Below, one piece after another: positions 1,007 to 2,892 of a stretch of 64,000 nt of DNA. The notes beneath the pieces were generated by a model. That model searched no databases. It was given only the letters and a program-made list of their open reading frames with translations, and had not been told where the DNA came from. Position numbers and translations under genes: made by a program. The DNA comes from Candidatus Dojkabacteria bacterium (GTDB lineage Bacteria > Patescibacteriota > Dojkabacteria > GCA-002793355). The stretch spans positions 1,024,221 through 1,088,220 of the forward strand of contig CP129477.1 of NCBI GenBank assembly GCA_030583825.1, given 5' to 3'. Each line of letters opens with the position of its first letter. The first letter of the stretch is position 1.

Positions 1007-2116
1007 ATGACTAGACTTTCAAGCATTTCTGCACAAGGAAAGAGTATTCCTCTCCCGACCTTTTTCCCAGATGCAACTCGAGGCTTTATTCGTAGCACCG
1101 ATTCGATTGACCTTCAAAACGCCAATATTGAAGGTTTAATTATGAATACCTACCATTTATTGACTGAGCCTGGCCCATCCGTTATAAAACAATTTCACGG
1201 ACTTCATAACTACACAAGTTGGCCTGGAACAATAATTACTGACTCTGGAGGATTCCAGCTTCTGTCACTTGTCTACTCAAAAGCTGGATTTGGAAAAATA
1301 TCAAACAAGGGGATTACTTTTTACCGAGGATCGAAAGGAAATAAGAAAAAATATGAATTCTCTCCTTCGAAGTGTATTGAAACACAATTTGCATTTGGCT
1401 CAGATATACTCATCTGCCTTGATGACTGCCCTGCCGCAAATGCAACTGAAGCCGAAGTAACACTATCAGTAGATCGTACCATCCAGTGGGCAAAAGAATG
1501 TAAACAGACATTCCTTCGTGAATTAAAGCAGCGAAAGATTCCAGAAAGTAAGCGTCCACTACTTTTTGCCGTTATTCAAGGAGGATCTATAAAATCAGAG
1601 CGAAAGCGCTGCGCAGACGCATTGCTCGAAATTGGTTTCGACGGATATTGCTTTGGCGGATGGCCACTTTTAGAAACAAAAGAACTCGATTTAGATATTG
1701 TTCAATATACGGCATCACTTACACCTGAATCATTGCCAAAATACGGCCTAGGAATCGGTAACCCAACCGCGCTTGTACAAAGCTACCTTGCAGGATACGA
1801 TATTTTTGACTGCGTATTACCAACGCGCGATGCTCGCCATGGCAGATTATATGTATTTGCAAATGAGAGAAATACAATTACGCAAGAAACTATTCAAAAT
1901 TTCTGGTCATTTTTCTACCCGGGAGCAGAAAAGTACCGCCGAGACACAGCTCCAATTTCGCCCTACTGCGATTGCTATACCTGTAAAAATTATTCTCGCG
2001 CGTATCTTAACCACCTGTATGTTGTAGAAGATCCCCTCGCGTTTCGATTAGGAACAATTCACAACCTTCGTTTTTATACCCAAGTTATTGGACAGCTGCG
2101 GTCATGGAAAAGTTAG
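1007..2116 (+). CDS. tgt: queuine/guanine tRNA-ribosyltransferase (tRNA-guanine transglycosylase)
   Basis: 369 aa. It has a GGFQ motif, the substrate-pocket region, and a C-terminal zinc site [17 protein letters not shown] (CxCxxC...H) typical of Tgt. Confidence 0.85.
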
Positions 2117-2892
2117 ACACACAACGAATTATAGGAACAATTGCTACCTCTAAGCGATATTCAGCAGTTTCACCAAAAACAATTGCGCACATTGTTACTC
2201 AATTTGCGGCAAAGCACAGCTCTGAACAAAAGGTTCTCGATGAAAGTAAAAATTTATTGCATAGAATTTGGGGAGCATACTACTCAACACGTCCTAATTT
2301 TCAAAAATTGAAAGCAAAGGTACTTGAGAATGAAGTATCTCTCTCAGATATTACTCGTATTCACTTTTCAACCTCAGAGCGCGCAGAATTCGCCTCAGAT
2401 ATGTATAAAAATATTTATGAAAAAACTAACTTCCCAAAGAGAATTGCTGATTTTGGATGTGGATTAAATCCTCTACTTGCAATGCAGCAACCATTTGCTA
2501 GCAGTCTCGAACAGTACGATGCCTTCGATATTGACATTGAAGAAGTAGAGTTCCTCAACGCGACCTTTTCTCATACTGGACAAAAAAACTTTTCTGCAGC
2601 CGTTGGTGATCTACTCCACATGCAATCTTTCACTACATACGACGCCATATTTTTGCTAAAAGTCCTCCCAGTTGTAGAAATGATTGAAAAGGGATCTACC
2701 GAACGTATTTTAAGGTCTCTGAAGGCACGATTTTTAGTTATTTCTTTTCCCGCTGGAAGCTTATCGCAACATAAACAAAATATGGGAAGTTTTTACGAAG
2801 CAGAATTTACACAAAGACTAACAGCTATAAAAAAAGAATATGAAATACTTCGTTACCCAACGGAAATTATTTTTATCGTAATGAATTCCTAA
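2104..2892 (+). CDS. 16S rRNA (guanine1405-N7)-methyltransferase, ArmA/Rmt (FmrO) family
   Basis: 262 aa. Conserved blocks match what I recall of ArmA/RmtB: SKRY...[27 protein letters not shown] (SAM motif I), [24 protein letters not shown]. The ATG lies inside the last 13 nt of tgt (ATGGAAAAGTTAG). Confidence 0.8.

Follow-up and report, generated by a model that had tools for sequence, protein, structure and literature searches.

A predicted 16S rRNA G1405-N7 methyltransferase of the FmrO/Arm/Rmt family overlaps a TGT-family gene in Candidatus Dojkabacteria

The window, the whole 64,000-nucleotide (nt) stretch of contig CP129477.1 analysed here, comes from a Candidatus Dojkabacteria metagenome-assembled genome (MAG) with a 1.09-Mb contig, in keeping with the small-genome host supposed in an initial annotation of the same DNA. 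Close to its start, a tRNA-guanine transglycosylase (TGT)-family gene, tgt, runs into a second gene on the same strand whose product, WKZ30090.1, is labelled "hypothetical protein" by NCBI. The pair is laid out as follows.

1007–2116, forward strand: TGT-family gene, the proximal member of the pair, encoding 369 amino acids (aa) (Pfam TGT, 305.2 bits).
2104–2892, forward strand: predicted FmrO/Arm/Rmt-family, S-adenosylmethionine (SAM)-dependent 16S rRNA methyltransferase gene, ATG start, 262 aa plus stop (WKZ30090.1).
2104–2116, forward strand: gene overlap of 13 nt, ATGGAAAAGTTAG, read directly from the sequence and containing the methyltransferase ATG and the tgt TAG.

The second open reading frame (ORF) was found exactly as first annotated, and its ATG does lie within the last 13 nt of tgt, whose stop is the TAG at 2114–2116. 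ATG 2104 is the earliest start available in the methyltransferase frame, and the resulting N-terminus (ME...) lines up with those of the closest relatives. From comparisons of sequence and predicted fold, this gene probably encodes a vertically inherited, chromosomal 16S rRNA methyltransferase that modifies N7 of G1405 (m7G1405) and is co-expressed with tgt.

WKZ30090.1 belongs firmly to the FmrO/Arm/Rmt family, and the membership first proposed from its motifs is upheld by profile, fold and catalytic residues alike. The Pfam FmrO profile hidden Markov model (HMM; PF07091) aligns residues 16–238 with positions 2–234 of 255 at 95.6 bits, well above its cutoff of 27 (E = 4.3e-27). Matches to Protein Data Bank (PDB) sequences down to E = 2.8e-16 are exclusively m7G1405 enzymes (RmtB, ArmA, Sgm, RmtC and RmtF), the best quoted being RmtB structure sequences at E = 1.6e-22. 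An AlphaFold2 model built from 44 homologues, with a mean predicted local distance difference test (pLDDT) of 95 and a predicted template modelling score of 0.92, divides the protein into two domains, within which three further sites matter here.

2104–2424, forward strand: N-terminal helical N1/N2 domain, residues 1–107, a predicted 30S docking module (AlphaFold2 model).
2425–2889, forward strand: C-terminal class I (Rossmann-fold) methyltransferase domain, residues 108–262 (alternating strands and helices from residue 113).
2449–2475, forward strand: DFGCGLNPL, the predicted SAM-binding glycine-rich motif, residues 116–124 (D116 in 144 of 154 aligned family members, G120 in 152, N122 in 134, P123 in 146).
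2659–2661, forward strand: codon of K186, the equivalent of RmtC Lys204 (K in 152 of 154 family members).
2752–2784, forward strand: variant loop, residues 217–227, the equivalent of RmtC Lys236 plus Loop 237–246 (family and sub-clade alignments).

Helices of the modelled N1/N2 domain span residues 6–14, 24–35, 41–55, 66–74, 80–84 and 88–107, and the C-terminal domain is alignable end to end with those of RmtB, Sgm and RmtC. In a Foldseek comparison with the PDB, the 16 best matches are the m7G1405 methyltransferases Sgm, RmtC, RmtB, RmtF and ArmA (E = 4e-20 to 4e-13), with alignments of about 260–287 columns and template modelling (TM) scores of 0.75–0.88 against the full-length enzymes (Sgm 0.85, RmtB 0.81–0.83 by query length, RmtF 0.84, RmtC 0.75–0.80). 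The seventeenth match is an unrelated methyltransferase at E = 1e-8, weaker by some five orders of magnitude in E-value. The structural match takes in the helical N1/N2 domain, which is peculiar to the FmrO/Arm/Rmt family; neither NpmA nor KamB appears among the PDB sequence matches or the 50 best Foldseek matches listed. NpmA, KamA and KamB, the m1A1408 methyltransferases, share the 30S surface and the outcome of aminoglycoside resistance (PMC10054953), but they form a different family that is without the N1/N2 domain. ArmA and RmtA–H (3frh for RmtB, 3fzg for ArmA, 6pqb and 8ghu for RmtC, 6pi9 for RmtF) have the same Pfam family and N1/N2-plus-Rossmann architecture as the window protein. Sgm (3lcu), which with GrmA, FmrO and KgmB of aminoglycoside-producing actinomycetes belongs to this family as well, is the best structural match at a TM score of 0.85, yet is 26% identical in sequence. 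Overall identity to characterised m7G1405 enzymes is 26–34%; because those enzymes, which catalyse one and the same reaction, are equally divergent (29–34% identical among themselves), the low identity is no argument against m7G1405 activity.

Functional residues of RmtC, listed from cryo-electron microscopy of its 30S complex and from mutagenesis (PMC10054953), were mapped onto WKZ30090.1 through a HMMER alignment and a MAFFT alignment of 154 sequences (150 environmental relatives with RmtB, ArmA, Sgm and RmtC). The six motif blocks originally quoted are all present in the translation and sit on the most conserved columns of the family alignment: the LHxIWGxYYS block (residues 52–61), IHFSTSER (86–93), DFGCGLNPL (116–124), YDAFDID (138–144), FLLKVLP (183–189) and ISFPAGSL (213–220). 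Conservation out of 154 is 150 for H53, 153 for S89, 152 for E92, 153 for R93, 152 for G120, 151 for D142, 152 for K186 and 147 for P216. No loss of SAM-binding residues has occurred, with S89 (S107 in RmtC), D142 (D160) and the D116-G120-N122-P123 set of the DxGCGxNP motif all at consensus. The residues that position G1405 are kept too, namely Y59 (Y60 in RmtC, which stacks on G1405 and SAM) and K186 (K204, which touches N7 of the flipped G1405 and whose replacement in K204A abolishes RmtC activity; PMC10054953). In its SAM-binding and G1405-contacting residues, the window protein is thus the same as ArmA and the Rmt enzymes. Y19 (Y21), H53 (H54) and the loop residue M227 (M245), like S89, D142, Y59 and K186, are identical to RmtC, and of the N1 docking positions, which in RmtC face rRNA helices h45, h44 and h27, three are conservatively basic: R18 (K20), K37 (R39) and K49 (R50).

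With its helical N-terminal domain, such a protein would dock on assembled 30S subunits, receive the flipped G1405 of helix 44 (h44) in its active site and pass a methyl group from SAM to N7, with Y59 stacking on the base and K186 touching N7. It would be made from an mRNA shared with the upstream TGT-family gene, by termination and reinitiation across the 13-nt overlap, and its expression alongside the translation machinery would make this a housekeeping-type modification, not an inducible resistance cassette. Housekeeping methyltransferases of h44 include RsmH and RsmI at C1402, RsmF at C1407 and RsmE at U1498. With these, the window enzyme would share the role of a constitutive, chromosomally encoded modifier of the decoding centre, although protein families and target atoms differ, and we know of no organism that uses m7G1405 as a housekeeping mark. 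The window itself has an rsmH/mraW gene (16S rRNA m4C1402 methyltransferase family, 212 bits) at 47964–48977 on the reverse strand near division and cell-wall genes, directly neighboured by a penicillin-binding protein (PBP) transpeptidase and an mraY-type glycosyltransferase, with ftsW/Z/A about 22 kb away. At least one other h44 modification enzyme is therefore natively encoded.

Relatives of the methyltransferase were collected by searching 1.84 billion cluster representatives exhaustively with HMMER; 1219 of them matched at E ≤ 1e-3, and 695 still did so at E ≤ 1e-10. This search was required to reveal the family, as a word-indexed protein search with the single query had returned the query itself and one 36% identical relative. 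A first scan of genome contigs with the single protein recovered no relative from a collection that evidently is without the source genome. An alignment of 44 sequences was too diverse for a search pattern and one of 10 sequences gave a single motif; because the pattern held this motif only, the list of taxa is a sample and not a census. In one genome per GTDB species, the motif scan yielded 18 loci, 13 of them labelled as candidate phyla radiation (CPR; Staskawiczbacteria 6, Saccharibacteria 5, WS6/Dojkabacteria 2), three labelled 'Gammaproteobacteria' (a label that is unverified) and two unclassified. Named relatives come from Staskawiczbacteria, Saccharibacteria, WS6/Dojkabacteria and Moranbacteria, and many carry the name '16S rRNA (guanine(1405)-N(7))-methyltransferase' in IMG.

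No search found a relative closer than 48% identity. The closest homologues form a sub-clade of four genomes (the window, L002, L026 and L028), and a scan of metagenome contigs with the sub-clade alignment added one locus. In each of them the methyltransferase overlaps tgt: by 13 nt in L026 (methyltransferase P0196, 48% identical to the window protein; tgt of 369 aa), by 13 nt in L002 (P0003, 41%; tgt 76% identical) and by 16 nt in L028 (41%; tgt 71% identical). The junction tcATGGAAnnnnTAG is identical in three of the four (window, L002 and L026), and inspection by eye revealed no convincing Shine-Dalgarno sequence upstream of the methyltransferase start in any sub-clade genome. In L002, opposite-strand genes bracket the pair on both sides, so that the unit consists of exactly tgt and the methyltransferase. 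Beyond the sub-clade, six loci (L012, L018, L014, L020, L008 and the P0152 locus) have a same-strand tgt within 1.3 kb upstream; overall, tgt is upstream or overlapping in 10 of about 24 loci with sufficient upstream sequence. The more distant tgt loci frequently read M23 peptidase, tgt, (nadD-like), methyltransferase, (NUDIX), obg. Other relatives, most of them from CPR-labelled genomes, adjoin ileS and fmt, with an 8-nt overlap with fmt, or lie beside rplL, in the gatA/divIC to ligT/murC interval of Staskawiczbacteria or beside a DEAD-box helicase gene. Mobile-element genes occur in none of the relatives' neighbourhoods.

Three side observations concern these loci. In a Saccharibacteria MAG (CAYRJV010000002.1; L012, 4001–5209), a single ORF of 402 aa, directly after tgt with an 8-nt overlap, joins an FmrO-family methyltransferase to a Ribosomal_S30AE/hibernation-promoting-factor domain, a fusion that misassembly or a spurious frameshift may have produced. 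Three members of the sub-clade, out of four, also have near the pair a gene for a RimK-like ATP-grasp protein and, next to it, one for a treble-clef zinc-finger protein (window, 5628–6644 on the forward and 6682–7179 on the reverse strand; L026, 1230–2678; L028, 3813–5202); the RimK-like proteins are 65–66% identical, and the L028 copy starts 36 nt past the methyltransferase. E. coli RimK modifies ribosomal protein S6, and the RimK-like gene may be a third modifier of the translation apparatus in the neighbourhood. Finally, three loci labelled 'uncultured Gammaproteobacteria' (L014, L018 and L020) have the CPR-type tgt variant described below and the M23-tgt-methyltransferase-obg layout, a layout shared by L008, an unclassified MAG, and by the Joint Genome Institute (JGI) locus of P0152; one such locus lies on a 1.57-Mb contig. 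These loci may be mislabelled, unless the clade reaches beyond CPR.

A literature search found no account of the conserved overlap with a variant tgt, of the translation-gene neighbourhoods or of the divergent-loop sub-clade, and a search combining FmrO with Patescibacteria returned nothing. Two CPR 'resistome' surveys (PMC8651080, 10.64898/2026.07.13.738296), in the portions available to us, report uncharacterised Patescibacteria and metagenome FmrO-family genes and give no gene-neighbourhood analysis. The window gene belongs to that population, from the rest of which it differs by its small divergent sub-clade, its modified loop and its fixed tgt overlap.

The partner gene is a tgt at the family level, as initially annotated, but it is not a textbook bacterial tgt. 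It matches the E. coli TGT structure at E = 5.6e-62 and falls 3 bits short of the queuosine-TGT equivalog TIGR00430 (303.4 bits vs a cutoff of 306.75). It retains the aspartates of TDSGG, DDC and FDC and the CDCYTC..H zinc site, while the base-pocket motif reads GGWPLLE for the GGLAVGE that ends the E. coli sequence GYAVGGLAVGE; judging by the Zymomonas enzyme, this position presumably lines the preQ1 pocket. When nine methyltransferase-linked tgt genes are aligned (window, L002, L026, L028, L012, L018, L014, L020 and L008), all nine have GY[CG]FGGWPL in place of GYAVGGLAVGE. FFPDATRG replaces FMPVGTYG in all of them, a short insertion of variable sequence is a further common feature, and the catalytic Asp residues and zinc site are retained. 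By these motifs the linked TGTs look like a distinct CPR-type subfamily, the base that they insert being uncertain. An apparent loss of the TGT nucleophilic Asp ('GNPTAL' for 'GKPEDL') was rejected, since alignment with the E. coli enzyme puts the conserved Asp in the intact FDC motif.

Several observations weigh against an m7G1405 methyltransferase that is co-transcribed with tgt. With NF000466, the NCBI/AMRFinder Rmt equivalog, WKZ30090.1 scores 184.8 bits, under the trusted cutoff of 250, which explains its 'hypothetical protein' name in GenBank. Its sub-clade has the lowest NF000466 scores, 185–194 vs 212–255 in the other relatives tested, and P0158 is the sole relative tested to pass the cutoff (the relatives' full range being 185–255). 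The equivalent of RmtC K47 is D46 (K in 89 of 154), beside a one-residue alignment gap; G218 stands at the position of RmtC K236 (K/R in 91 of 154), and H223, with K224 adjacent, at that of R241 (K/R in 123 of 154), so that the window protein has G and H where these loop residues are compared with ArmA and the Rmt enzymes. In RmtC, R241E abolishes function and K47E and K236E reduce it, and Loop 237–246, which is disordered in the free enzymes, distorts h44 (PMC10054953). The corresponding variant loop is the least confident stretch of our model (mean pLDDT 71 over a 10-residue block). Rfam and tRNA scans of the window found five tRNAs and no rRNA, so the host G1405 lies outside its reach. Of the native, co-transcribed pair first proposed, the pairing is borne out by an overlap that recurs in three relatives with methyltransferases 41–48% identical; co-transcription we infer purely from the arrangement of the genes, and searches for promoters and terminators near the pair did no better than on shuffled sequence. 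Lastly, a recent preprint reports that a CPR 'grm-like' methyltransferase caused no change in minimal inhibitory concentration (MIC) in E. coli; the portion available to us describes no expression check.

On the alignments, the deviating residues all fall at RNA-contacting positions, outside the catalytic pocket. The main rival reading is a retargeted enzyme, in which the altered-loop sub-clade methylates another h44 position, precursor 30S or a tRNA guanine, perhaps together with the variant TGT. The displacement of family Lys/Arg by G218 and H223 in the h44-distorting loop, and of Lys by D46, speaks for such a shift, as do the low NF000466 scores and the altered base pocket of the partner TGT. 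The pattern SFPx[GTS][ST]L..xK...G is, moreover, common to the window protein, P0196, P0003 and the L028 protein, with G, T or S at 218 and an invariant K224, which suggests changes that are maintained, not random decay. We nevertheless consider retargeting unlikely. The residues that hold SAM and G1405 (Y59, S89, D142 and K186) and most docking residues (R18, Y19, K37, K49 and H53) are intact; P0196 has K and L028 has R at position 223, where the sub-clade thus accepts, and commonly has, a basic residue; at the position of RmtC K236, 63 of 154 family members do without K/R, so this residue is no universal feature; and all characterised family members, across about 30% identity, make m7G1405 (PMC10054953). 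The same non-consensus loop residues and sub-cutoff score, with the CPR homologue that the available part of the preprint describes as giving no phenotype in E. coli, could instead mark an inactive remnant that has kept the fold and lost methylation. This is very improbable, given an intact, full-length ORF with all invariant family residues present and 89 columns invariant over three sub-clade members 41–48% identical to the query, every catalytic position included. Dead genes would also be expected to disappear from a genome of 1.09 Mb, and here the gene architecture has been conserved.

The predicted G1405 methyltransferase appears native to its chromosome, and its recent arrival as an ArmA/Rmt-type resistance cassette by horizontal transfer, which we rate as barely conceivable, is effectively excluded by these sequence features. 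At 0.365, its G+C content (GC) is lower than that of all but one of 44 window ORFs (mean 0.393, z −1.7), which would fit a foreign origin; however, the flanking genes are at 0.367–0.376, GC at third codon positions (z −1.06) and synonymous codon choice (z +0.35) are typical, and 62% of equal-sized window chunks are as far or farther from the window mean in tetranucleotide distance. The window ORFs scanned are housekeeping genes or without Pfam match (ftsW/Z/A, PBPs, mraY, rsmH, ruvC, enolase, pheST, tig for trigger factor, a class II ribonucleotide reductase and a class II aminoacyl-tRNA synthetase among them), and no transposase, integrase or integron features were found in them. The overlap with a housekeeping gene is conserved where the proteins are only 41–48% identical, and the nearest relative is at 48% identity while the clinical enzymes are at 26–34%. 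ArmA and the Rmt enzymes are plasmid- or transposon-borne, whereas the window gene is chromosomal and overlaps tgt. The native origin first read from base composition is thereby upheld.

Chromosomal, native genes of this family are also those of the actinomycete producers, and the window gene could be a dedicated self-protection or resistance determinant of an organism living on or beside aminoglycoside producers. The retained chemistry would indeed block aminoglycosides of the 4,6-disubstituted deoxystreptamine (4,6-DOS) class, and the role of Vibrio cholerae tgt, which supports decoding fidelity and is needed for tolerance of sub-lethal aminoglycosides (PMC11703503), makes a tgt-rmt drug-tolerance module possible. 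We judge this reading quite improbable. The producers' self-protection genes lie in biosynthetic clusters, whereas the window gene lies in a translation-gene pair of a low-GC CPR host with no aminoglycoside cluster; its surroundings show no gene cluster or regulator of the producer type and no mobile element, and relatives occur in many CPR-labelled lineages in plain housekeeping contexts. The initial suggestion of an actinomycete epibiont finds no support, as the organism belongs to Dojkabacteria and not Saccharibacteria, and neither the window nor the titles and abstracts of the papers searched show a producer link or an actinomycete host. CPR bacteria have furthermore been argued to be poor aminoglycoside importers for lack of respiration (10.64898/2026.07.13.738296). 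Because uptake is argued to be poor and another CPR homologue gave a null MIC result, the drug-protection rationale is weakened.

If the predicted methyltransferase does make m7G1405, the ribosome would be insensitive to 4,6-DOS aminoglycosides (kanamycin, gentamicin, tobramycin and amikacin), and sensitivity to neomycin-class drugs, apramycin and streptomycin should persist; the insensitivity is an expected but unproven consequence. The benefit under selection could be either drug protection or a tuning of decoding. Arm/Rmt enzymes raise the error-proneness of E. coli ribosomes (PMC12406665), and together with the V. cholerae tgt role this might explain, as speculation, why an enzyme of the wobble base is paired with a methyltransferase of the decoding centre.

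Other genes of the window are noted for completeness. Within 9 kb of the methyltransferase, a glyoxalase/bleomycin-resistance-fold protein (4910–5323, reverse strand) and an ABC exporter pair (7693–11464, reverse strand) are encoded; these are generic families and give no sign of a resistance island with the methyltransferase. The class II ribonucleotide reductase (33254–36880, forward strand; 1208 aa) ends in a TSCPD domain and, unexpectedly, matches a TACO1/YebC N-terminal domain weakly at residues 306–368, with a genuine YebC gene at 39328–40110. Three genes may belong to an apparatus for host attachment or DNA uptake of the kind typical of episymbiotic CPR bacteria: one for a 946-aa protein that combines four Laminin_G_3 repeats with a clostridial-neurotoxin receptor-binding-like domain (18488–21328, forward strand), a PilM-type pilus assembly gene (28131–29159, reverse strand) and a gene for a HerA/TraG-like ATPase (40128–42584, reverse strand).

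The environmental relatives may also bear on the clinical genes. By pairwise identities alone, a partial ArmA sequence is 41–43% identical to the environmental set P0007/P0004/P0206, compared with at most 33% to the other characterised enzymes compared, and RmtC is 36–37% identical to the P0158/P0179 set, compared with at most 32%. Environmental ArmA/RmtC-like homologues lie in housekeeping contexts at loci L005, L007 and L027, and the GC of L006 and L007 is 0.31–0.33. These identities hint at an environmental, possibly CPR, reservoir for armA and rmtC; a literature search for armA/rmtC progenitors found no origin study. In its widest form, which we hold to be distinctly unlikely, the argument would make m7G1405 an ancient Patescibacteria housekeeping mark, genetically linked to a TGT variant specific to CPR (and, in certain lineages, to obg, fmt, RimK-like ligases or, by fusion, a hibernation-factor domain) in a module that tunes the decoding centre, with this environmental pool, and not actinomycete producers, as the source of the low-GC armA and rmtC.

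If active, the window enzyme would present m7G1405 as a built-in, constitutively co-expressed feature of translation that is neither producer self-defence nor a mobile resistance gene. This would bear on the origins of ArmA and the Rmt enzymes, on the tolerance of CPR bacteria to the aminoglycosides used in enrichments and on the co-tuning of decoding-centre methylation with wobble-base exchange. If inactive or retargeted, its altered loop would be a natural experiment on G1405 specificity. In practical terms, the gene is hidden under the NCBI name 'hypothetical' and below the cutoffs of resistance-gene HMMs. Both the family and the kind of host are known, and the locus is of interest chiefly for testing whether a mechanism of clinical resistance could have had a housekeeping origin.

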